Positions 21,163 to 32,000 of a DNA stretch of 32,000 nt are shown here, one piece after another; positions within the stretch are counted from its first letter, which is position 1, and each line of letters begins with the position of its first letter. Origin of the DNA: Alkalilimnicola ehrlichii MLHE-1 (lineage in GTDB: Bacteria > Pseudomonadota > Gammaproteobacteria > Nitrococcales > Halorhodospiraceae); the NCBI RefSeq assembly GCF_000014785.1, contig NC_008340.1:2670001-2702000 (forward strand). Reading direction: 5' to 3'. The notes beneath the pieces were generated by a model that did not search any database, was not told the DNA's origin, and worked only from the letters and a program-made list of their open reading frames with translations. The translations under genes were made by a program, and so were the position numbers.

Positions 21163-23766
21163 TCAGTTGCCGTCGTCAAGCACCCGGCAACGGATGTCGT
21201 AACGCCAGGCGGTACCGGACTGCGGGCCGATGACCGTGATCTTGAAGCTGTCCACGGCCCCCTTCATGAAGATGGCGTCGGCCTGGCCCCGACCCGGCCC
21301 GGCGATGCCCCCGGGATAGAGGGGATCACCCTCGTAGCGGGAGGCGCCCCGCCAGCCAGTGTCGTGCACCACGGCGCCGGCCGGGTACTCGACGATGTAC
21401 TTGTCCGGGATGGAGTAGGCGTCGAAACGCAGGTCGAAGACCGCCCCGGTGGGGATCTCGCTGATGTCCCAGTTGTCCACGGTGACGCCCTGGCCACCCT
21501 GGTCCGCGGCACGCCAGACGTTGCAGATGTCCAGCTCTTCGTCGCGCTCCTCCACCTCGCCGATGGTCACCACGGCACTGGAGTCCGCCAGTTGGCCATC
21601 CTCGCCGCTCAGCGTGGCCACAAGGCCGTAGGCCCCCTCCTGCCCGTAGGCGTGGGAGATGGTGGTGCTGGCGGTGTTATCCGCCCCCACGCTGACCTGG
21701 GTCGACCCGCTATTGCCGTCACCGAAGGCCCAGTCGAAGGTCACGGTGTCCACGTCGGGCGGGATGCGCACGGCATTCAGATTGAAGCTGTACTGCACCC
21801 CCACTTCGCCATCACTGAGGCCCGGCGGGTCGATGCGCAGGATCACATCGCTGGAGACCTCCACATTGGCCGGATTCTCCGCCGCATAGGGGAAGCCCAG
21901 GGCACCAAACAGGCCGTCATAGACACGGACATTCATGGCGTAGACCCCTGCCTCTTCCGTGGCGGGCACCCAGGTTTCAGTGGCATTGCCGTTGCCGTCG
22001 TTGCTGGCCTGGGCCACCACCTCGCGGGTCCACGGGGCATCGTTGGCCTGGTCGGTACGGAAGGCGACAAAGTCGGTATCCAGGCTGCCGATGCTTTGGC
22101 CGGCGCTCACCTGCAGGGAGAGGGGCTCTTCCACCTCGACCTTGGCCGGTGCCGCCTGAACCTGGGGATTGGGCGACTGCAGCAGCGAGCGATGGATATC
22201 CACCAGGTTCACGTTGGTGGAGACAAATCCGCTGATGTTTGCCGCCCCCGGCACCCCCATCCGATCAAGAATGCGCTCAAAGGCCTTGATGCTGTCCAGC
22301 AGGGGGCCGAAGCCGGCCTTGCCCTCAGCGAAGAACGACCACCGCGGGCCCCGATAGTCTTGCTCCTCCGAGTCGAAGGGGTACGTCATGCTCAGGTCTG
22401 AGCCGCCCCCGATCTCCAGGCCAACCAGGCCGGTGCTCGCCAGCTCCCAGCGCAACACCCGAACGTCCAGGTTCAGAGCGGCACCCATGTAGGGCCCCAC
22501 GCTGGCGGAAAACTCATTCTCGAGGCCGCCGCCAAGGTTGGCGAAATCGACACCATCGCCGAAGGTCTCGAACTCGTTGATACCCCGAAAGCCTTGGACG
22601 CCGGTATAGCCAATGCCCAACTCCATCGAAGCACCCTGGTCGAGTTCTATCCCGCTCAGGGAGAGCTCACCCGCCTGATAGCTGCCCGCCACCTTGAACC
22701 CTACTGAAGGCTCCAGGCTGGGGGTGAGCAATACCGGCCCAACCACCGGCACGGCGGCAAAGGGCACGGAACGAAGGCCCCGGCTGCAGTTCACGTCGGC
22801 GCTGCCGCCCCCGGAAAGCGTGACACCGCCCAGGCTGGCGTTAAGGTGGCCCTGCCCGTCCAGGTAGATGTCAAAGCGGTTCAGCGAGCGGTTGCTGATA
22901 TCCAGATCCACCCGCGGGACCAGCGCGTAATTGTGGTTGATGCTCAAACCGGTCACGCCGATATTCAGCACGCTGCCGCCGAGTTTGCACTCCAGGCCAC
23001 CCTGGATTTGTTGAACGGCCGCACCGCTGACCCGGTCTTCCGCGGCCGCGCCCGACACGCCGGCACCCTCCGGGCGCCCGTCGTCGTGCCCGTCTTCATC
23101 CAGCACCCCGCCATAGTTCAGGGGCGTGCCCTGAGCCTGGATGCTCAGATTCTCGAAGGCGTCGGTGAGCTCGGCCGGTTCGGTCTCAAGCACCACGCGA
23201 TTGCCGTGCACCGTGACCTCGGTGACCCGGTCCAGCAGACCGGCCCGGTCGCCACTGACCAGCACGTCACCGGGCGCCAGGCCCTCGGTCTGCTCATTGC
23301 GCTGCAGGACCACCCGGGCGGTCAGCTCGTCCTCGTCGGTGAGTCGGTCGTCCACCACCCACCCGGCATCGACGTAGAGCGCACCGGGGGCCAGGTCGGC
23401 GATAGCGGCCAGGGCCATCACCGGCTCCACGCCCTCGGCGGAGAGCTGGATATTGGCCGACCCGATGGTGTGCGTCAGTGCGGTGATCCGGCCGCTGGCG
23501 TCCACCCCGATCAGATCCGGGTTGGTGGATTCGTACTCGATGGTGGCGGTTCGATCGACGCGGCCGTTATCCAGTACGACGTAGGCCTCGATCTCCGCGC
23601 TGTCCCCGGCGCCGGAAAGGATGATGGATTGGTCGGAGACAATCTCGATGCGTTCCGGCTCGCCCCCCAGGCCCCCACCGAAATCCTCATCCTCGACACA
23701 CCCGGCCATTAATACTAGAACAAGTAAAATAATTAGCAGTTGGATGAATCTGCTTAATCGATACAC
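21163..23766 (-). CDS. Large secreted lipoprotein with a Big_2-like Ig domain and a PKD domain
   Basis: Signal peptide plus lipobox (LVLMAGC). Big_2-like segment (…AEIEAYVVLDNG…STNPDLIGVDASGRITAL…). PKD motif FDWAFGDGNSG…ISHAYGQEGAYGLVATL. GTG start with AAGGAGGA 4 nt upstream. Confidence 0.75.
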   Translation of the reverse strand: MYRLSRFIQLLIILLVLVLMAGCVEDEDFGGGLGGEPERIEIVSDQSIILSGAGDSAEIEAYVVLDNGRVDRTATIEYESTNPDLIGVDASGRITALTHTIGSANIQLSAEGVEPVMALAAIADLAPGALYVDAGWVVDDRLTDEDELTARVVLQRNEQTEGLAPGDVLVSGDRAGLLDRVTEVTVHGNRVVLETEPAELTDAFENLSIQAQGTPLNYGGVLDEDGHDDGRPEGAGVSGAAAEDRVSGAAVQQIQGGLECKLGGSVLNIGVTGLSINHNYALVPRVDLDISNRSLNRFDIYLDGQGHLNASLGGVTLSGGGSADVNCSRGLRSVPFAAVPVVGPVLLTPSLEPSVGFKVAGSYQAGELSLSGIELDQGASMELGIGYTGVQGFRGINEFETFGDGVDFANLGGGLENEFSASVGPYMGAALNLDVRVLRWELASTGLVGLEIGGGSDLSMTYPFDSEEQDYRGPRWSFFAEGKAGFGPLLDSIKAFERILDRMGVPGAANISGFVSTNVNLVDIHRSLLQSPNPQVQAAPAKVEVEEPLSLQVSAGQSIGSLDTDFVAFRTDQANDAPWTREVVAQASNDGNGNATETWVPATEEAGVYAMNVRVYDGLFGALGFPYAAENPANVEVSSDVILRIDPPGLSDGEVGVQYSFNLNAVRIPPDVDTVTFDWAFGDGNSGSTQVSVGADNTASTTISHAYGQEGAYGLVATLSGEDGQLADSSAVVTIGEVEERDEELDICNVWRAADQGGQGVTVDNWDISEIPTGAVFDLRFDAYSIPDKYIVEYPAGAVVHDTGWRGASRYEGDPLYPGGIAGPGRGQADAIFMKGAVDSFKITVIGPQSGTAWRYDIRCRVLDDGN

Positions 23767-24020
23767 AACGTCCTCCTTGAGCCCGGTCCCCCGGGCCTGT
23801 AACCATTATTCTTAAGGCTTCTTAAAGGTTTCCCTGATACCCGCCGAGCGGCGGACGGCCTGTTATACACCGCCTTGGGTTCCGCGGTAAATACCGAGAA
23901 AAGGCACCTGTAAAGGAAGCCGACATTCGCGAAGAAACGCCTATTGATCAAGAAGCATTAATTAAAAACACGCGAGAAAAATCTGTCTTTTCTCCATAGA
24001 GGCAAGGGCCGTCCCCTCCC

Positions 24021-24562
24021 GTGCTTGCGAGCCCCACGCCCCGCTACGCGGGCCCGACTCAACGAGGAACGGCGCTCCCCGTCATCGCGAGGGCCGAAGG
24101 CCACACCCCCGTCATCGCGAGGGCCGAAGGCCCGTGGCGATCCAAGCGGCGTATGGACTGCCGCGTCGCTGCGCTCCTCGCAGTGACGGGGGAGGCGCCC
24201 CCACCGTCATCGCGAGGGCCGAAGGCTTTCCCCGTCATCGCGAGGGCCGCGGGCCCGCGGCGATCCAAGCGGCGTATGGACTGCCGCGTCGCTGCGCTCC
24301 TCGCAGTGACGGGGGAGGCGCCCCACCGTCATCGCGAGGGCCGAAGGCTTTCCCCGTCATCGCGAGGGCCGCGGGCCCGCGGCGATCCAGGCGGCGGGTG
24401 GACTGCCGCGTCGCTGCGCTCCTCGCAGTGACGGGGGAGGTGCCCCCACCGTCATCGCGAGGGCCGAAGGTTTTCCCCGTCATCGCGAGGGCCGAAGGCC
24501 CGTGGCGATCCAGGGCGGTAGACTGCCGCGTCGGCTTCGCCTCCTCGCAGTGACGGTGGGGT
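24021..24562 (+). repeat. REP/BIME-like tandem array 1: four copies of a composite unit of about 122-123 bp
   Basis: GTCATCGCGAGGGCCGAAGG half-sites start at 24081/24111, 24206/24234, 24328/24356 and 24451/24479. Each long module pairs GTCATCGCGAGG with CCTCGCAGTGAC as an imperfect hairpin. Degenerate GCAATGAC remnants continue to about 24642. Confidence 0.9.
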
Positions 24563-24766
24563 GGTGCAATCACGGAATCGGGAGCCCGCAATGGCGGAGT
24601 GCGGGGCCTTGCAATGACGACGAGACGACTCCTGGCAATGACAGCTTATTCAATATTTCCTTAACAGATCTCCGCATTTAATGAGCTCACGGGCGTAACG
24701 CCCGGGGCACCAGCTATTGCGGCCCATGGCTCTTGATTTCTGCCCACCAGTGGTAGAGTAAGGCTC

Positions 24767-25591
24767 ATGAACAACCTGCTCACGACCCTGCACACGGCGA
24801 TGGACGAGGCGGCCCATCGGGTGATGGCCATCTACGCCGATCCCGACCGCTTCGATACCCGGCGCAAGGCCGATGACAGCCCGGTCACTGCCGCCGATCT
24901 CGCCGCTCACGACTGCCTGGTGGCGCACCTGCGGGCGGTGGCGCCCGACATCCCGGTGGTGTCCGAGGAGGCGCGCCCGGCCCCTTGGTCGGAACGGCGT
25001 CATTGGTCGCGCTGCTGGATCATCGACCCGCTGGACGGAACCAAGGAGTTTCTCAAGCGCAACGATGAGTTCACCATCAATGTGGGACTGGTGGAGGGCG
25101 GCCAGCCGGTGCTGGGCATGGTGGACGCCCCGGCCCTGGGCGAGCGCTATTACGCCATACGCGGTGAGGGGGCCTGGCGCCAGAGCGCTGGGGCCGAGCC
25201 GCGAAGCATTCGGGTGGTGGAGCCGCCCCGGGCCGGCGACCGCCCCTGGCGGGTGGTGGGCAGCCGGTCCCATGCCTCGGCGGAGACCCAGGCCTTCATC
25301 GAGCAGCTTCCTGAGGTGGAGTTGGTGCCCATGGGCAGTTCCATGAAGGTCTGCCTGGTGGCCGAGGGCCGAGCCGATCTCTACGCCCGTCTGGGCCCCA
25401 CCGGCGAGTGGGATACCGCCGCCGCGCAATGCGTGCTGGAGGAGGCGGGCGGCTGCCTGCTGAGCGCTGAGACCGGCGAGCCGCTGCGTTACAACGAGCG
25501 CGAGTCGCTGATCAACCCCTGGTTTATCGCCTGCGCCCGCCCCGACCCCGCCTGGCAGTTGCCACACGTCCCCCTGGCCGAGGCCCGTTAA
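24767..25591 (+). CDS. cysQ: 3'(2'),5'-bisphosphate nucleotidase
   Basis: Inositol monophosphatase family motif WIIDPLDGTKEF. The length and overall sequence pattern match CysQ. Confidence 0.85.
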   Translation: MNNLLTTLHTAMDEAAHRVMAIYADPDRFDTRRKADDSPVTAADLAAHDCLVAHLRAVAPDIPVVSEEARPAPWSERRHWSRCWIIDPLDGTKEFLKRNDEFTINVGLVEGGQPVLGMVDAPALGERYYAIRGEGAWRQSAGAEPRSIRVVEPPRAGDRPWRVVGSRSHASAETQAFIEQLPEVELVPMGSSMKVCLVAEGRADLYARLGPTGEWDTAAAQCVLEEAGGCLLSAETGEPLRYNERESLINPWFIACARPDPAWQLPHVPLAEAR

Positions 25592-25671
25592 TCTCGATCG
25601 ATTACTAATCCCATCGTCTAGACTGATTATTGAGACTCGGATTCGATTGAGGCCGCCTGCACCCTCCCCGG

Positions 25672-26424
25672 GTGCGGGCCAAACAGGGGATGCAGCGCAT
25701 GGGGCAGGCACTGTCGCGGTTCGACGAGGACCTCCGCAAACTGGCGCGGTTTGTGGAGGAGACGGAATCGGCGGAGCGGGGGCTGACCCAGCTCTCGCAG
25801 CTGGTCAGCCATGCGATGGGCTGCCGGCACTGCTCCATCATGCTCGTCAAGCACGACCCGGACAGCGGCGAGCCGCAGCTGCGGGTGCAGGCGCACCACG
25901 GCGACCTGCCCGAGGCGGCCTACGACGACGCCCAGCCCCTCGGCAGCGGCATCGCCGGGCGCGTGGCCAGTTCCGGCAAACCGCTGCTCATCTCTGATGT
26001 GGACCACTCGGAGTTCGCCGGCCTGGCCCTGCGCCAGTCGGGGAAGGGCCCGGACAGCATCTCGGTACCCATCGTGCTGGAGGATGAGGTGGTGGGGGTG
26101 ATCAACGTGGACAGCCCGGAGGGCGGCCGGCGGCTGGGCGAGGATGACCTGCGGATGGCCTCGATCCTGGCCCTGGTGGTGGCCAAGTCGCTGCACATCC
26201 AGCGGCTGCGCGGGTTGCTCAAGACCCACTTCATCAAACTGGCCCTGGCCCGCGCCCGCGCCGAAGGCAACGGCCCGGTCACTCACGCCCCGGAAAAGGT
26301 CGCCAAGCTGATGGCCCGCACCCTCTACCAGGAGATGGACAAGGCCGGCTTCTCCCGCGACCACATCCTGACCGCCGCCACCGAGATCATCAGCCAAGTC
26401 AGCGACGCGATGGACACGCGCTGA
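25672..26424 (+). CDS. GAF domain-containing protein
   Basis: GAF-like core (…GIAGRVASSGKPLLISDV…SISVPIVLEDEVVGVINVDS…). The start is uncertain: GTG 25672, ATG 25690 or ATG 25699. Confidence 0.65.
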   Translation: MRAKQGMQRMGQALSRFDEDLRKLARFVEETESAERGLTQLSQLVSHAMGCRHCSIMLVKHDPDSGEPQLRVQAHHGDLPEAAYDDAQPLGSGIAGRVASSGKPLLISDVDHSEFAGLALRQSGKGPDSISVPIVLEDEVVGVINVDSPEGGRRLGEDDLRMASILALVVAKSLHIQRLRGLLKTHFIKLALARARAEGNGPVTHAPEKVAKLMARTLYQEMDKAGFSRDHILTAATEIISQVSDAMDTR

Positions 26425-26439
26425 CAGACTCTCCCCTCT

Positions 26440-26640
26440 CCGTCGTCGCGAAGGCCGGGTAAACACTCCCACCGTCATCGCGAGCCCCCCTTCCCCGCTG
26501 CGCGGGCCCGAATCAACGAGGAACGGGGCACCCCTGTCATCGCGAGGGCCGAAGGCTTTCCCCCCGTCATCGCGAGGGCCGAAGGCTTTCCCCCCGTCAT
26601 CGCGAGGGCCGAAGGCCCGTGGCGATCCAGGCGGCGCTCG
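26440..26640 (+). repeat. REP/BIME-like array 2 (three short half-site modules plus a truncated long module)
   Basis: GTCATCGCGAGGGCCGAAGGCTTTCCCC repeated, then …GGCCCGTGGCGATCCAGGCGGCG. Same family as array 1. Confidence 0.85.
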
Positions 26641-26661
26641 GCACGACCGCGGCATACACCG

Positions 26662-26997
26662 CTATCGGTCGCGGTGGTTAGGGTGATCCCGTTGCAGTTT
26701 ATCCAGGGCCCGCTTGACCGATCGTTGATGTGAGCGGCCCAAGGCACGACGGATTTCCAGGGTGCCCACACCAATCGCCAGCAGCGCCACCGGGGCCAGG
26801 ATGACGCCGATGAGCGCAATAATGCCGGCGACCTCATCACGCAGAGACAGCACCAACCCGGCTATCACCCCCACCGCCAGCCCGCCGGTGACTACCACCA
26901 GCACTTTGACACGAGGCGGTTGCTCCTTGACCCACCACAGCAGTGGCGCTACTAGCAATAACGCTAACAGTTCCCAGGAACTTTCCGGCAGAGTCAT
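26662..26997 (-). CDS. Small integral membrane protein, unknown function
   Basis: Three hydrophobic segments. Lies 9 nt downstream of the lipoprotein gene on the same strand and shares its lower GC. Confidence 0.5.
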   Translation of the reverse strand: MTLPESSWELLALLLVAPLLWWVKEQPPRVKVLVVVTGGLAVGVIAGLVLSLRDEVAGIIALIGVILAPVALLAIGVGTLEIRRALGRSHQRSVKRALDKLQRDHPNHRDR

Positions 26998-27006
26998 GGC
27001 GTTAGC

Positions 27007-28560
27007 TCATCCCTGGAAAACGAGTTGTCGCTGCTTTCGGTCCAATACCTCGTCCCCTCTGCGAAGTTCAGCGACCACGGTATCCCGCACGCCGGATTCT
27101 GCCCCGGGCACAGTCATGGCATACCTTTGATCAGGTTGGATAGAGAACGTCCGGCTTGCAGAATACCCGTCAGTCCCCTCTACACTGAAATGGATGCTCA
27201 TCTCCGGGGCCTCGTCACAATCGACCCCAAGCTCGATACGATATGACTGACCCCGGCCCGGGGCCGACGGACTCAAGATCAGCTCATGCAGATGCGCATC
27301 CTTTCCGTCTTCCAACTCCAACTCTACGACAGCCGGTTGGCTGCCCGGCTCCGCGATGGATACCGCACCTGTTTCCGTCGTGCCGGCACCGCTGTACCGC
27401 GCCTCTACCATCACGGGGAAGTTGTCGTCCGGCCCCTTACGCATGTGCACTAGATCATTGCCGGCCTTATACAGCTTGACGGTGCCGTCAATCATCCCCT
27501 TAACTTCGGTGATTACCTGCCACACTCGCTTGACTCGGGGTACATTCGCTAGCAGCAGGACCGGCAGCCCGATCTTCGGAAAGGCCAGCAATAACCGAGT
27601 GACCGCGGCCACAAGGGTCTTTTCGGTTACAGCAGAGGCAACCTCATTCAAGGCAAAATTAAGACCACCAGACGCCAGCACTTCGCCAACCGTGGGAAGG
27701 TCATCCAGGCCAACTTCACCATAGAAACCGTCCTTATCAACGTCGGGCTTCAAGTCGATATGGACGCTAGGCGGTCGCAGCCAGTCCAACGCGATTGGGG
27801 GCACGCCGGGGCCGAAGCTGACCCTTCCGTCAATCTGCATTGCAGCATCAGCAGCCACCACGGCGGTTGCCTTACCACTGAATACGAGTCCGCATGCGCC
27901 CCTGGCCTGAACCAATATCTGTTGGCTGCTAAAGCTGCTAGCGAACAGACTAGCTTGGCCCATGACTGAGCCGCTGTCCGCATTTAGCGTCTTGACGGTG
28001 ATCCCCTCACCACCACGGGGAGCGTGCATCAGAGTTGCAGCGTGGACCGCATTCCCATTGCCATCGTCCGCTTCTTCTGCTTCCTGCTCGGCCTTCGCTA
28101 GTGTACTGCTATACGATTCGCCCTTACCAAGGTCACTGAACGTGAAGGCAACGTCGTCCTCTAGCTGCTCCAACTGCAGCCTTATGCCAGCGTTTTCCAG
28201 TTGTAGATCCAAATGGTCATCATCGACGACCAGCACTGTATTGTTCATGGGATCTACAGGGTCATTGACGACAACACGCCGGATGGCAACCACATTACCC
28301 GCTTCGTCACGGTCACCATAATAATGCGTGTAGGCTCCCGCTTTGGACTCCATAAACAAGATGCGCCCTTGCGGGTCGTCTGGGTAGAACGTTAAGCCTG
28401 CCCCGAATACTTCATTCTCCTTTAGGGCGGGACCATCTCCCGATTCAGTAGACTCCTCGTCGGTAACACACCCCACCAACAATGGTATGACCGGCATTGA
28501 CAGGGTTCCTGTCAATGCCTGGAGCAGGCGACGCCTTATCTTGTTGACTTCCTTGCCCAT
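27007..28560 (-). CDS. Secreted lipoprotein of unknown function (twin-arginine-like signal plus lipobox)
   Basis: N-terminus KIRRRLLQALTG…PLLVGC. AGGAAGG SD lies 5 nt upstream of the ATG. G+C is clearly lower than in the flanks. Confidence 0.65.
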   Translation of the reverse strand: MGKEVNKIRRRLLQALTGTLSMPVIPLLVGCVTDEESTESGDGPALKENEVFGAGLTFYPDDPQGRILFMESKAGAYTHYYGDRDEAGNVVAIRRVVVNDPVDPMNNTVLVVDDDHLDLQLENAGIRLQLEQLEDDVAFTFSDLGKGESYSSTLAKAEQEAEEADDGNGNAVHAATLMHAPRGGEGITVKTLNADSGSVMGQASLFASSFSSQQILVQARGACGLVFSGKATAVVAADAAMQIDGRVSFGPGVPPIALDWLRPPSVHIDLKPDVDKDGFYGEVGLDDLPTVGEVLASGGLNFALNEVASAVTEKTLVAAVTRLLLAFPKIGLPVLLLANVPRVKRVWQVITEVKGMIDGTVKLYKAGNDLVHMRKGPDDNFPVMVEARYSGAGTTETGAVSIAEPGSQPAVVELELEDGKDAHLHELILSPSAPGRGQSYRIELGVDCDEAPEMSIHFSVEGTDGYSASRTFSIQPDQRYAMTVPGAESGVRDTVVAELRRGDEVLDRKQRQLVFQG

Positions 28561-28694
28561 TTTAGCCTTCCTTGTGTATTCATCAGATAATCCGAAATTG
28601 ATCCGGTCAGCGGAGTATAGCCCACAAGCAAACAGGTGAGAGGAGACTACGCTCCCTAAATCACAATGCTGTGGCCACGCGGGGTGCCAACCGC

Positions 28695-28895
28695 AGCTTG
28701 GACTGACGCGTCGCTTTGCTTCTCGCAGTGACGGGGGGAGACGCCATCCCCGTCATCGCGAGGGCCGAAGGCCCGCGGCGATCCAGGGCGGTAGACTGCC
28801 GCGTCGGCTTCGCCTCCTCGCAGTGACGGTGGGGGAGGTGGCCTCCTCGCAGTGACGGTGGGGGAGGTGGCCTCCTCGCAGTGACCGGTGGGGGG
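28695..28895 (+). repeat. REP/BIME-like array 3
   Basis: One full long hairpin module (28751-28826), a partial right arm upstream of it, and three tandem CCTCCTCGCAGTGACGGTGGGGGAGGTGG modules. Confidence 0.85.
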
Positions 28896-28918
28896 TGGTG
28901 CCGCCGCCCCCGGGGCGG

Positions 28919-30100
28919 TTACGCAGGGTCCAGTGTGCGTAACGTGTGCCGGGCGATCATCAGCTCTTCGTTGGTGGGGATGATGTAGGCCGGGATGCGG
29001 CTGTCGGTGGTGGTGATGCGCCCGGCGTTGTGGGCGTTGGCCTCCCGGTCCAGGGTGATGCCCAGCCAGCCCAGTTGCTCGCAGATGGCGGCGCGCACCG
29101 GGGCGGCGTTTTCGCCGATGCCGGCGGTGAAGACCAGGGCGTCCAGCCCGCCCAGGGCGGCGGTGAGGCTGCCCACCTCGCGCACGGCGCGGTAGACGTA
29201 GTACTCCACCGCCTCGGCGGCCTCGCGGCGGTCGCTCTCCAGGAGCTGGCGCATGTCGGCGCTGATGCCGGACAGGCCGAGCAGGCCGGAACGGCGGTAG
29301 AGCAGGTCCTCAATCTCAGCGGCGTTCATCCCTTCGTTCTGCAGCAGGTAGAGGATGACGCCCGGGTCGATGTTGCCGCAGCGCTGGCCCATGGGCAGGC
29401 CGTCCAGGGCGGTAAAGCCCATGGTGCTGGCCACGCTCTGCCCGCCGTGCAGGGCGCACATGCTGGCGCCGTTGCCCAGGTGGGCGACGATGGTGCGCCC
29501 CTCGGCGGCTTGCCGGTCATGATCTGGCAGCACGGAGGCGATGTACTCGTAGGACAGGCCGTGGAAGCCGTAGCGCAGGACCCCCTTGTTCTCGTACTGG
29601 CGCGGCAGGGCGAAGCGCTGGGCGACGCGCGGCTGCTGGCGGTGGACGGCGGTGTCGAAGCAGGCCACCTGGGGCAGATGCGGGCGGACCCGGGCCACGG
29701 CGTGGATGGCGCGCAGGTTGTGAGGCTGGTGCAGCGGTGCCAGTTCGCAGAATCCGTCCAGCCGCTCAAGGATGTCATCGGTGATCCGCACCGGGTGGCT
29801 GAACTCCGGCCCGCCGTGAACCACGCGGTGGCCGGCGCCGATCAGGTCATGGCCCTCCAGCCTTTCCTCGAGCCAGCTCAACGCCCGGTCCAGGGCCTCA
29901 TCATGCCCATCGGACTCCGGTAATTCCTCGTGCAGCAGGCGTTTGCCCTGGTCGTCCTTGATCTGCAGCGAGCCGATGCTGGCACCCAGACCGTCGGCCT
30001 GCCCCCGGTAGCAGGGGGTCGGCGCCCCGCCGGCCACGGTGTACAGCGCAAACTTGATGCTGGAGGAACCTGCGTTGATGACGAGCAGGGCCTGGGTCAT
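28919..30100 (-). CDS. ackA: Acetate kinase
   Basis: N-terminal LVINAGSSSIKFALY motif and full-length AckA-like sequence. GGAGG lies 6 nt upstream of the ATG. Confidence 0.92.
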   Translation of the reverse strand: MTQALLVINAGSSSIKFALYTVAGGAPTPCYRGQADGLGASIGSLQIKDDQGKRLLHEELPESDGHDEALDRALSWLEERLEGHDLIGAGHRVVHGGPEFSHPVRITDDILERLDGFCELAPLHQPHNLRAIHAVARVRPHLPQVACFDTAVHRQQPRVAQRFALPRQYENKGVLRYGFHGLSYEYIASVLPDHDRQAAEGRTIVAHLGNGASMCALHGGQSVASTMGFTALDGLPMGQRCGNIDPGVILYLLQNEGMNAAEIEDLLYRRSGLLGLSGISADMRQLLESDRREAAEAVEYYVYRAVREVGSLTAALGGLDALVFTAGIGENAAPVRAAICEQLGWLGITLDREANAHNAGRITTTDSRIPAYIIPTNEELMIARHTLRTLDPA

Positions 30101-30200
30101 GGGGGGCCTCCGCGTGGTTCGTACTGTTTATGGTTGAATCGTCATTGTGACGGGCAAGGCGTTGAAGTGATAGGTACGCTGCTGCTCGCCATGATGTTAT

Positions 30201-30888
30201 GGATTGCTTCGCTGCGCTCGCAATGACGGGGGTGGCACCTCCCCGGCCCTCTTGATGAACATGGCCAGACGCTGCGGGCGCCCCCTACCCTCACTGCGAG
30301 CGCGGCCCCACCCCCACCGTCACTGCGAGGAGGCGAAGCCGACGTGGCAGTCTACCGCCCTGGATCGCCGCGGGCCTGCGGCCCTCGCGATGACGGTGGG
30401 GGCGTATCCCCCGGCCCTCGCGATGACGGTGGGGCACCTCCCCCCGCCACTGCGAGGAGCGCAGCGACGTGGCAGTCCATGCGCTGCCTGGATCGCCGCG
30501 GGCCTGCGGCCCTCGCGATGACGGTGGGGGCGTATCCCCCGGCCCTCGCGATGACGGTGGGGCACCTCCCCCGTCACTGCGAGGAGCGCAGCGACGTGGC
30601 AGTCCATGCGCTGCCTGGATCGCCGCGGGCCTGCGGCCCTCGCGATGACGGTGGGGGCGTATCCCCCGGCCCTCGCGATGACGGTGGGGCACCTCCCCCG
30701 TCACTGCGAGGAGCGCAGCGACGTGGCAGTCCATGCGCTGCCTGGATCGCCGCGGGCCTGCGGCCCTCGCGATGACGGTGGGGGCGTATCCCCCCGGCCC
30801 TCGCGATGACGGTGGGGGCGTATCCCCCCGGCCTGCGCGATGACGGGGGGACGGCTCCCCCCGCCTAGCGATGACGGTCGGCGGCCTT
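30201..30888 (-). repeat. REP/BIME-like array 4: inverted orientation, four near-identical units of about 127-128 bp plus degenerate ends
   Basis: G[TC]CACTGCGAGGAG starts at 30318, 30446, 30573 and 30700. Units 30446-30572 and 30573-30699 differ at a single position by eye. This is the reverse complement of the array 1-3 consensus. Confidence 0.9.
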
Positions 30889-30891
30889 TCC

Positions 30892-32000
30892 TTAGAGATG
30901 AGCCAGGCCCTTGCGCTTGCGTTCGGCCACCAGCAGGGCGATGGCGCAGGAGGCCAGGCGGGCCACTACGTCGTCGGCGCGGCTGGTCAGCACGATGGGC
31001 ACCTTGGCGCCCAGCACGATGCCGGCGGCCTCGGCGTCCGCCAGGTAGTAGAGCTGCTTGGCCACCATATTGCCCGACTCCAAGTCCGGCACCAGCAGGA
31101 TGTCCGCCTGCCCGGCCACCTCGGAGCGGATGCCCTTGGTGCGTGCGGCAGCGCGGGAGATGGCGTTGTCGAAGGCCAGCGGCCCGTCCAGCAGGCCACC
31201 ATGGATCTGCCCTCTGTCGGCCATCTTGCAAAGCGCGGCGGCATCCAGGGTGGACTGCAGATCGGGGTTGACCGACTCGGTGGCGGAGAGGATGGCGGCG
31301 CGCGGCTCCGGGTTGTCCAGGGCGTGGGCCAGTTCGATGGCGTTCTGCAGGATGTCGCGCTTGGCCAGCAGGCCGGGGTGGATGTTGATGGCCGCGTCGG
31401 TGACCAGCAGCGGGCGCGGGTAGGTGGGCACGTCCATGCAGTAGACATGGCTGACCCGCCGCTCGGTGCGCAGGCCGTCGCGCCGGACCACCGCGCCCAT
31501 GAGCTCGTCGGTGTGCAGCGAGCCCTTCATCAGGGCCTCCACGTCGCGGTTCTTGGCCATCGCCACGCCCTGCTCCGCCGACTGGTGGCTGTGCTCGGTG
31601 GCCACCAGTTTGAATTGGGAGATGTCCAGTTCCGCCTCCTCGGCGGTGGCACGGATGCGGTGCTCCGGCCCCACCAGGATGGGCACCAGCAGGTTGTGTT
31701 CGGCGGCCCGCACCACCCCCTCCAGCGACAGGGCGTCCACCGGGTGGACCACCGCCGTGAGGATGGGGTCCAGGTCGTGGGCCAGGTCCAGCAGGCGTTT
31801 GAGCTGGCGGCGCTGGCGCCCCTTGGTCTGCAGCTCGGCCTCTGCCGGAGAGATCTGGGTGTGCTCCCGGCTGAGCTTCTCGGTGGGCGCACGCACGATG
31901 TAGATACCGCGCAGCACGTCCTCGCCATGTTCGTTCACACACTGGCAATCGAGCATCACCTGGCGGTCGCCCTGCTTCTCGTGGACCCGCACGGTGACGG
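30892..32000 (-). CDS. pta: Phosphate acetyltransferase, bifunctional MaoC-hydratase/PTA type; 5' end lies outside the window
   Basis: PTA_PTB-type domain (…VVHPVDALSLEG…LMKGSLHTDELM…LVTDAAINI…) preceded by the end of a hot-dog/MaoC-like segment. The frame stays open to the window edge. Adjacent to ackA. Confidence 0.85.
   Translation of the reverse strand, partial: VTVRVHEKQGDRQVMLDCQCVNEHGEDVLRGIYIVRAPTEKLSREHTQISPAEAELQTKGRQRRQLKRLLDLAHDLDPILTAVVHPVDALSLEGVVRAAEHNLLVPILVGPEHRIRATAEEAELDISQFKLVATEHSHQSAEQGVAMAKNRDVEALMKGSLHTDELMGAVVRRDGLRTERRVSHVYCMDVPTYPRPLLVTDAAINIHPGLLAKRDILQNAIELAHALDNPEPRAAILSATESVNPDLQSTLDAAALCKMADRGQIHGGLLDGPLAFDNAISRAAARTKGIRSEVAGQADILLVPDLESGNMVAKQLYYLADAEAAGIVLGAKVPIVLTSRADDVVARLASCAIALLVAERKRKGLAHL

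Follow-up and report, generated by a model that had tools for sequence, protein, structure and literature searches.

We analyzed a 32,000-nt stretch of the Alkalilimnicola ehrlichii MLHE-1 chromosome (NC_008340.1, positions 2,670,001 to 2,702,000; hereafter the window), focusing on two low-G+C genes that lie between the genes for a GAF-domain protein and acetate kinase (ackA). One gene codes for a putative lipoprotein of 517 amino acids (aa), in an open reading frame (ORF) identical to Mlg_2376, and the other for a small membrane protein of 111 aa. Both are flanked by arrays of repetitive extragenic palindromes (REP), of the type also known as bacterial interspersed mosaic elements (BIME). The features that carry the argument are as follows:

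26637–28696, minus strand: predicted inserted cassette of 2,060 bp (±2 nt per junction), its borders placed where similarity to an intact REP unit stops and resumes.
27007–28560, minus strand: 517-aa putative lipoprotein with features of twin-arginine translocation (Tat) substrates, Mlg_2376 / WP_041718057.1 (hypothetical in RefSeq), with an RRR n-region and the lipobox LVG-C31.
26662–26997, minus strand: 111-aa small membrane protein, Mlg_2375 / WP_011630108.1, with about three transmembrane (TM) segments and a basic C-terminal tail.
28561–28696, minus strand: upstream region of the cassette, 46–58% G+C, with the Shine-Dalgarno sequence AAGGAAGG; the promoter is presumed to lie here.
24019–24562, plus strand: REP array 1, intact, with roughly four composite units of ~123 nt; it serves as the reference for an uninterrupted array.
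26467–26636, plus strand: REP array 2, which would be the split array's head with the first half-unit; it matches the head of array 1 and ends ...GCGATCCAGGCGGCG.
28697–28900, plus strand: REP array 3, which would be the second half-unit with the split array's tail; it matches the tail of array 1 and starts CTTGGACTGACGCGTCGC...
30288–30878, minus strand: REP array 4, same family, inverted relative to arrays 1–3, between ackA and pta.

The cassette is tightly packed and consists, in order of the coordinates, of a 25-nt 3′ tail, the 111-aa gene, a 9-nt spacer, the 517-aa gene, and a 136-nt upstream region. A strong Shine-Dalgarno sequence (AAGGAAGG) stands 6 nt before the ATG of the 517-aa ORF, and the 111-aa ORF starts 9 nt past its stop codon, an arrangement in which the two genes are probably co-transcribed and translationally coupled. 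A model that read the letters of this DNA and a list of its ORFs had described a 517-aa lipoprotein followed, 9 nt downstream, by a 111-aa three-TM protein (hereafter the original prediction), and ORF and hydropathy analyses agree with that description. The stretch 26300–29000 showed no consensus for a sigma-70 promoter or an intrinsic terminator.

The composition of the insert sets it apart from its surroundings, with the 32-kb window serving as the reference for both base composition and codon usage. The mean G+C content of the window is 70.1%, while 500-nt windows at 27001–28500 have 54–59% and the lowest 100-nt value is 46%. The insert as a whole (26637–28696) has 57.3% G+C versus 71.0% for the remainder of the 32-kb window, a value below that of every other 2,062-nt window (minimum 63.1%; z = -4.7). 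At third codon positions, the G+C fraction (GC3) is 0.62 for the 517-aa ORF (z = -7.2) and 0.69 for the 111-aa ORF (z = -5.3), versus 0.882±0.037 for the 21 other ORFs of the window; similarly, the synonymous-codon log score gives z = -5.3 and -4.3, respectively. The anomaly in G+C content and codon usage is far beyond chance. Hand counts in the original prediction (45–57% in the island, ~77% for a line in ackA) are in line with the computed values, and the deviation of the island from the rest of the window (GC3 0.88±0.04 when rounded) now rests on sliding-window and codon statistics.

The second line of evidence comes from the repeats. The REP-type motif GTCATCGCGAGGGCCGAAGGC occurs in 20 copies in the window, versus 0.01 expected, and its partner motif CCTCGCAGTGACGG in 33 copies, versus 0.8 expected. 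All REP motif copies fall within 24079–30812, with none in the first 24 kb; they are all intergenic, form G+C-rich imperfect palindromes, and have the characteristics of a REP/BIME-type array. Four such arrays are packed into 7 kb (24019–30878), between the gene of a PKD protein, the cysQ-GAF pair, ackA, and pta. Arrays 1 and 4 are complete, each made of a distinct head, composite internal units of 123–127 nt, and a distinct tail, and an intact REP unit folds with z = -2.65. Between array 4 and the start of ackA, at 30201–30227 on the minus strand, there is also a single copy of another palindromic repeat type, GTCATTGCGAGCGCAGCGAAGCAATCC.

The two arrays next to the cassette are each incomplete. 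Array 2 matches only the head of array 1 (24019–24132), and array 3, in the same orientation, matches only its tail (24399–24562), picking up at CT-TGGACTGACGCGTCGC (28697). In intact units, the two stretches found at the junctions sit just 2–3 variable bases apart (...GATCCAAGCGGCG-TA-TGGACTGCCGCGTCGC...). When positions 26636 and 28697 are joined, the sequence reads CCCCGTCATCGCGAGGGCCGAAGGCCCGTGGCGATCCAGGCGGCG|CTTGGACTGACGCGTCGC..., colinear with units inside arrays 1 and 4; excising 26637–28696 therefore rebuilds one REP unit. The unsplit unit is predicted to have had the form ...GATCCAGGCGGCG-NN-TGGACTG... From this alignment, we infer that the cassette entered one REP unit at the central spacer separating its palindromic halves, and arrays 2 and 3 read as the head and tail of a single array cut by the insert. 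Repeat analysis agrees with the original prediction that repeat arrays flank the island on both sides, and replaces its proposal that the island was gained by recombination at two arrays with one array, split mid-unit by the island. The empty site with merged arrays that it had envisaged could be reconstructed in silico and was not found among the sequenced relatives searched.

The cassette was also searched for signatures of the insertion itself. At the insert ends, inverted and direct repeats, as expected for terminal inverted repeats (TIR) or a target-site duplication (TSD), aligned at the mean scores of shuffled sequences, with nothing significant. The ORF list of the window contains no integrase, transposase, or recombinase, and a scan of the window with Rfam, tRNA models included, matched no family and hence no tRNA. 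No pseudogene fragments, att-like repeats, or recombinase remnants were found within or beside the insert. The cassette displays neither the hallmarks of mobility (integrase or transposase, tRNA target, flanking direct repeats) nor the makeup of an insertion sequence (IS) or transposon (transposase gene, TIR, TSD).

On either side of this region, the genes are housekeeping genes, as the original prediction had proposed and Pfam matches confirm, in ORFs with the GC3 bias usual for the genome:

24767–25591, plus strand: inositol monophosphatase family (cysQ-like) gene; Pfam Inositol_P, 2.5e-49.
25672–26424, plus strand: GAF-domain gene, left neighbor of the cassette and convergent with it; Pfam GAF, 6.5e-16; GC3 0.92.
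28919–30100, minus strand: ackA (acetate kinase), right neighbor, on the cassette's strand and upstream of it; Pfam 1.1e-110, TIGR00016; GC3 0.91.
30892–31998, minus strand: pta (phosphate acetyltransferase); PF01515, 9.5e-41; extends past the window end.

Between GAF and ackA, there are the 517-aa and 111-aa ORFs. The same gap was examined in relatives, where a one-genome-per-species scan with ackA returned three loci. In L003, the metagenome-assembled genome (MAG) of a soda-lake gammaproteobacterium, AckA and the GAF protein are 86% and 84% identical in amino acid sequence to those of the window, and the genes are convergent as they are here. The 550-bp gap between them (54% G+C) contains a ribbon-helix-helix (RHH) antitoxin (PF01402, DUF6290) and a ParE toxin (PF05016) at 353–836, with no REP copies and no trace of either cassette gene. 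In L018, a second contig, whose GAF protein is 87% identical, the DNA beside GAF likewise carries the ParE gene of such a pair (940–1267). Of the relatives seen, L017 is the closest, with a GAF protein 95% identical, and has retained the cysQ-GAF pair with REP-like sequence flanking it. Thioalkalivibrio and Ectothiorhodospira are uninformative on the site because their GAF homologues are not beside ackA. The presence/absence comparison across relatives, proposed with the original prediction, shows that the cassette genes are absent from the orthologous site in L003, which has a ParDE-type pair in the gap; L018 likewise has ParE beside GAF. Because different members of the lineage carry different low-G+C cargo at this position, the GAF-ackA gap seems to act as a minor hot spot for integration within the Alkalilimnicola lineage.

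The wider neighborhood offers further observations. Window positions 1–21000 hold a glycan/surface-modification cluster (an ABC exporter, radical SAM, GT28-like, Rieske oxygenase, methyltransferase, GT1, NeuB, and GT61 genes), and polysaccharide-synthesis genes adjoin GAF homologues also in the relative MAG (L003 1812–6826) and in Thioalkalivibrio (L023 1–4860). Because of this cluster upstream and of the polysaccharide genes beside GAF homologues elsewhere, the cassette can be placed at the edge of a typically variable region. The PKD-protein gene at 21163–23766 (minus strand) codes for an 867-aa product that matches a PKD domain weakly and has a lipobox-like AGC close to the N-terminus (GC3 0.82). 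This gene and its neighbors at 20–23 kb have 63–67% G+C, somewhat below the rest of the window, and an AT-rich stretch of 53% G+C lies upstream of it at 23767–24000. A kinship of the window's two 867-aa ORFs was considered and rejected, as the two are unrelated.

The 517-aa ORF begins MGKEVNKIRRRLLQALTGTLSMPVIPLLVGC, and the N-terminus of its product, MGKEVNKIRRRLLQALTGTLSMPVIPLLVG-C31, has three arginines in its basic n-region, an h-region of mild hydrophobicity with many G, T, S, and P residues, and a lipobox, …PLLVG-C31, conforming to the pattern [LVI][ASTVI][GAS]C at the end of a signal peptide. The lipoprotein assignment of the original prediction is strengthened by at least 90% conservation of the lipobox cysteine in the family described below. 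Its 517-aa start is the same as that of RefSeq WP_041718057.1 and is supported by the Shine-Dalgarno sequence and by homologues that align from residue 4–6; the GenBank entry, ABI57716.1, is 448 aa long and begins at Met70, omitting both the signal peptide and the lipobox. A twin-arginine-like I-R-R-R-L-L-Q is present, and the claim of a twin-arginine signal is plausible in that some relatives have a clear RR-x-F-L motif, while this protein itself matches no Tat hidden Markov model (HMM).

The mature part of the protein is acidic (75 D+E versus 40 K+R), and its sole cysteines, C223 and C448, fall in separate predicted domains, where they may be functional residues or be joined by a disulfide between domains. 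AlphaFold2 run with the family alignment gave a model with pLDDT 76.5 and pTM 0.56; the single-sequence model (pLDDT 36) was unusable. The predicted layout comprises a beta domain (~54–153), a helix, a disordered acidic linker (~168–208), a beta-sandwich (~212–284), a hydrophobic helical bundle (~291–371), and two beta-sandwiches (~383–514). Residues 316–341 in the bundle are predicted to be helical and have a hydrophobicity equal to that of the signal peptide. Foldseek searches of the PDB and BFVD returned just generic Ig/FN3/ML-like single-domain matches (TM-score per query ≤0.16) and no structural match for the whole protein. PDB sequence-profile matches to teneurin/Rhs YD regions and ribosomal L2 were discarded, all having E>0.1. 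Neither the 517-aa nor the 111-aa protein has a Pfam, NCBIfam, PHROG, or PADLOC match above noise, tblastn of the 517-aa protein against plasmid and phage collections gave zero matches, and no publications naming Mlg_2375 or Mlg_2376 were found. In the 111-aa protein, the C-terminal tail has 13 K/R/H in 31 residues.

At the level of close relatives, both proteins stand alone. A word-indexed search of 5.8e9 proteins matched the 517-aa protein solely to the strain's own copy, a word-index profile search likewise returned the query's own protein only, and the 111-aa protein is a singleton cluster. Because the larger protein matches only itself in 5.8e9 proteins and the smaller is a singleton, a strain- or species-restricted acquisition fits.

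A full HMMER search of 1.84e9 representatives found 146 clusters (50% identity) at E≤1e-3, 12 of them at E≤1e-10. Full-length relatives (460–550 aa) are P0002 (31%, E 2.5e-58), P0003, P0004, P0006, P0008, P0011, and P0013, and in many further members the similarity lies mainly in the last ~100 residues. Across 60 aligned sequences, the lipobox cysteine, C223, and C448 are at least 90% conserved, and the C-terminal motif GTDGY..DS / VPGA..GV.D reaches that level or stands out in the consensus. Most relatives have lipobox-like N-termini, some with canonical Tat motifs (RRDFLK, RREFLR) followed by the lipobox, and P0016 passes TIGR01409 (22 bits versus a cutoff of 16.7). Scans of 60 family members with Pfam, NCBIfam, PHROGs, and PADLOC yielded nothing meaningful; NCBIfam 'invert_tail' matches fell on signal peptides, far under the cutoff, and were set aside. 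The named members are only a 'putative lipoprotein' (Cellvibrio japonicus) and a 'hypothetical protein' (Endozoicomonas sp.). The family appears to be spread over Proteobacteria, and, judging from signal peptides, would include Bacteroidota-type lipoproteins too.

The genomic context of the family differs among its members. In C. japonicus Ueda107, a 523-aa homologue is followed by a 114-aa 3-TM protein with a basic tail, whose ATG lies 8 nt after the stop, and the small proteins begin MEGILPENS in C. japonicus and MTLPESS in A. ehrlichii. This block (L004 5001–8000, CP000934.1) consists of a LuxR-type regulator directly upstream, the homologue, and the 3-TM gene, at 36–39% G+C in 51–58% DNA, and is flanked by genes for a large serine recombinase, a TraG/VirD4-like protein, and a resolvase. 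This has the appearance of an independent horizontal gain of the module. Downstream of P0006 and P0008, the partner is instead a 249–260-aa secreted protein without a Pfam match (L015 6568–7317; L019 6367–7149), and KfrA, MqsA-like, and DNA methylase genes are close by. P0003, P0004, and P0013 have no co-directional partner, and P0003 and P0013 are near GerE-family regulators. The family is accessory, patchy, and often found in variable regions.

Good support for horizontal acquisition, already proposed in the original prediction, comes from the deviating composition and codon usage, the interruption of a REP unit, and the different cassette at a relative's site, namely the ParDE pair in the L003 gap. 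We consider it likely, and hold with good confidence, that a foreign, promoter-bearing two-gene cassette of 2,060 bp inserted into a REP unit between GAF and ackA, and that the pair probably forms an envelope module. A pre-existing REP array in the convergent GAF-ackA gap would have received the cassette in the central spacer of one unit, splitting the array into a head piece (26467–26636) and a tail piece (28697–28900). Integration may have come about by recombination at the palindromic REP unit, either illegitimate or structure-prone, or through a transposase or recombinase acting in trans, and not by machinery of the cassette's own. The 517-aa protein would leave the cytoplasm, possibly by Tat, receive a lipid on Cys31, and stay anchored in the envelope, displaying four beta-rich domains around the hydrophobic helical bundle, perhaps with a C223–C448 disulfide. 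The 111-aa protein would sit in the inner membrane with ~3 TM helices and a basic cytoplasmic tail. Judged by these predicted features, the pair probably works as an accessory cell-envelope module, whose role may be a surface or adhesion function, or that of a membrane-active protein with a protective partner.

Several observations weigh against this interpretation or parts of it. No TIR, TSD, att, or recombinase signature points to an insertion mechanism. No strain with the empty site was found, and the 1.9-kb contig of L017 ends within REP, 37 nt past GAF. The ParDE-bearing relatives lack a REP array at the site; for the order of events, array before cassette, the split-unit argument is the single line of evidence. 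Regarding export, the 517-aa protein is unmatched by the Tat HMMs TIGR01409 and PF10518 at E≤0.01. As for the pairing, the mutual BLASTP of the two small membrane proteins is not significant, their global alignment reaches z = 3.7 against a lenient null (8 of 2,000 shuffles reach the score), and the small 3-TM partner is missing from the other subclades of the family, the pairing being kept only with the closest homologue.

Among the other explanations, the one that survives best concerns what the pair does. The lipoprotein could be membrane-active or a contact-dependent antibacterial acting through its internal hydrophobic helical hairpin, with the 3-TM protein as its cognate immunity protein in the inner membrane. 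Immunity proteins of pore-forming colicins are ~110 aa long with three TM segments, like the 111-aa protein. A small TM gene directly follows in the two closest homologues (9-nt and 8-nt spacers), residues 316–341 combine helical prediction with the hydrophobicity noted above, the distribution is that of an accessory gene prone to horizontal transfer in variable or mobile regions, and the same site in a relative carries a toxin–antitoxin (TA) pair. However, no toxin, bacteriocin, immunity, or defense model in PADLOC, Pfam, NCBIfam, or PHROG matches either protein, most family members lack the small partner, a lipid-anchored export is odd for a released toxin, and Foldseek finds no pore-former fold. 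We regard such a toxin/immunity-like module as unlikely, while giving it more credit than the explanations that follow; the effector/immunity or envelope-stress role suggested in the original prediction is still speculation, toxin, immunity, and defense models being unmatched.

Slightly less probable still is that a larger mobile element, such as an integrative and conjugative element (ICE), a prophage, or an integrative island, integrated here and eroded until only these two genes were left. In its favor, genes for a large serine recombinase, for a resolvase, and for a TraG/VirD4 coupling protein surround the C. japonicus pair, and P0006 and P0008 have KfrA, MqsA-like, and DNA methylase genes nearby. 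However, excising the 2,060 bp restores the REP unit within 2 nt, which leaves no room for remnants; in keeping with this, the insert and its borders are free of the pseudogene fragments, att-like repeats, and recombinase remnants that were looked for, and the plasmid and phage collections hold no tblastn match to the 517-aa protein. A more far-reaching version of the preferred interpretation would see in the pair the founding example of an undescribed mobile envelope system, in which a Tat-exported lipoprotein of new architecture bears a membrane-acting hairpin, the 3-TM partner protects or controls it, and both travel on a recombinase-less mini-cassette targeting REP centers; we put little weight on this.

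Two explanations fare worse. Class I holins are small proteins with three TM segments and a charged C-terminal tail, and the size, three-segment hydropathy, and strongly basic tail of the 111-aa protein resemble them, so that it could be a holin-like protein (3 TM, N-out/C-in, charged tail) controlling lipoprotein release or envelope permeabilization. Its topology is compatible with that class, while the family match and the lysis context are lacking: there is no PHROG or Pfam holin match and no endolysin or spanin nearby in the window, and the lipoprotein has its own signal peptide, all of which makes this role very improbable. Least probable by a small step is that the genes are native and vertically inherited, with a low G+C content caused by gene-specific constraints and REP arrays that colonized both sides independently, since, although REP arrays fill several neighboring intergenic gaps and flanking arrays alone are not special, a GC3 of 0.62 versus 0.88 is not attributable to amino acid constraints, the left piece is head-only and the right piece tail-only with break points that coincide in one unit, the genes are absent at the site in a relative with 84–86% identical neighbors, and there is no close homologue in 5.8e9 proteins.

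An insertion into a REP unit, as preferred here, has precedents. REP/BIME palindromic units are insertion targets of IS1397, ISKpn1, IS621, and ISPpu9/10, and strain-specific segments ('loops') of E. coli associate with BIMEs (PMC1525189). The A. ehrlichii locus resembles these insertions in having foreign DNA inside an intergenic palindromic unit that is cleanly split and can be rebuilt by removing the insert, but its insert is cargo-only, without a transposase, terminal inverted repeats, or target duplication. Cassette insertion into REP is thus a known type of event; here, nothing is left that could have catalyzed it. The locus also resembles islets such as that of L003 ParDE in being a two-gene, low-G+C, promoter-bearing cassette between conserved convergent genes, in a gap that holds different cargo by lineage; unlike the L003 islet, its cargo is a large lipoprotein and a small membrane protein, with no recognized TA, defense, or resistance module.

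For the proteins themselves, the nearest comparison is C. japonicus ACE83656.1 (CP000934.1), the closest homologue (31% over the full length, E 2.5e-58), which shares the RRR-plus-lipobox N-terminus, a tight downstream gene for a ~110-aa 3-TM protein with a basic tail, and a low G+C content for its host, and is equally uncharacterized. Unlike the A. ehrlichii pair, it has a LuxR-type regulator upstream and recombinase and conjugation genes around it, and lies outside a REP array. With Tat-exported lipoproteins, the 517-aa protein shares the RRR n-region, the mild h-region, and the lipobox L-V-G-C, and its relatives have RR-[DE]-F-L followed by a lipobox; it differs in scoring below the TIGR01409 and PF10518 thresholds and in that no cofactor-binding domain was found to explain the use of Tat.

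The understanding of such systems is unchanged by this locus, and its practical value is in annotation and in a testable two-gene module. For Mlg_2376, the GenBank entry should adopt the 517-aa start. A further outcome is the definition of a family of 450–550-aa lipoproteins that no existing model covers, some possibly Tat-exported, for which a family model could be made. Finally, as a cargo-only cassette resolved to the base pair in what appears to be a single REP unit, the locus adds evidence that REP/BIME arrays may serve as entry points for foreign DNA even without a leftover IS.

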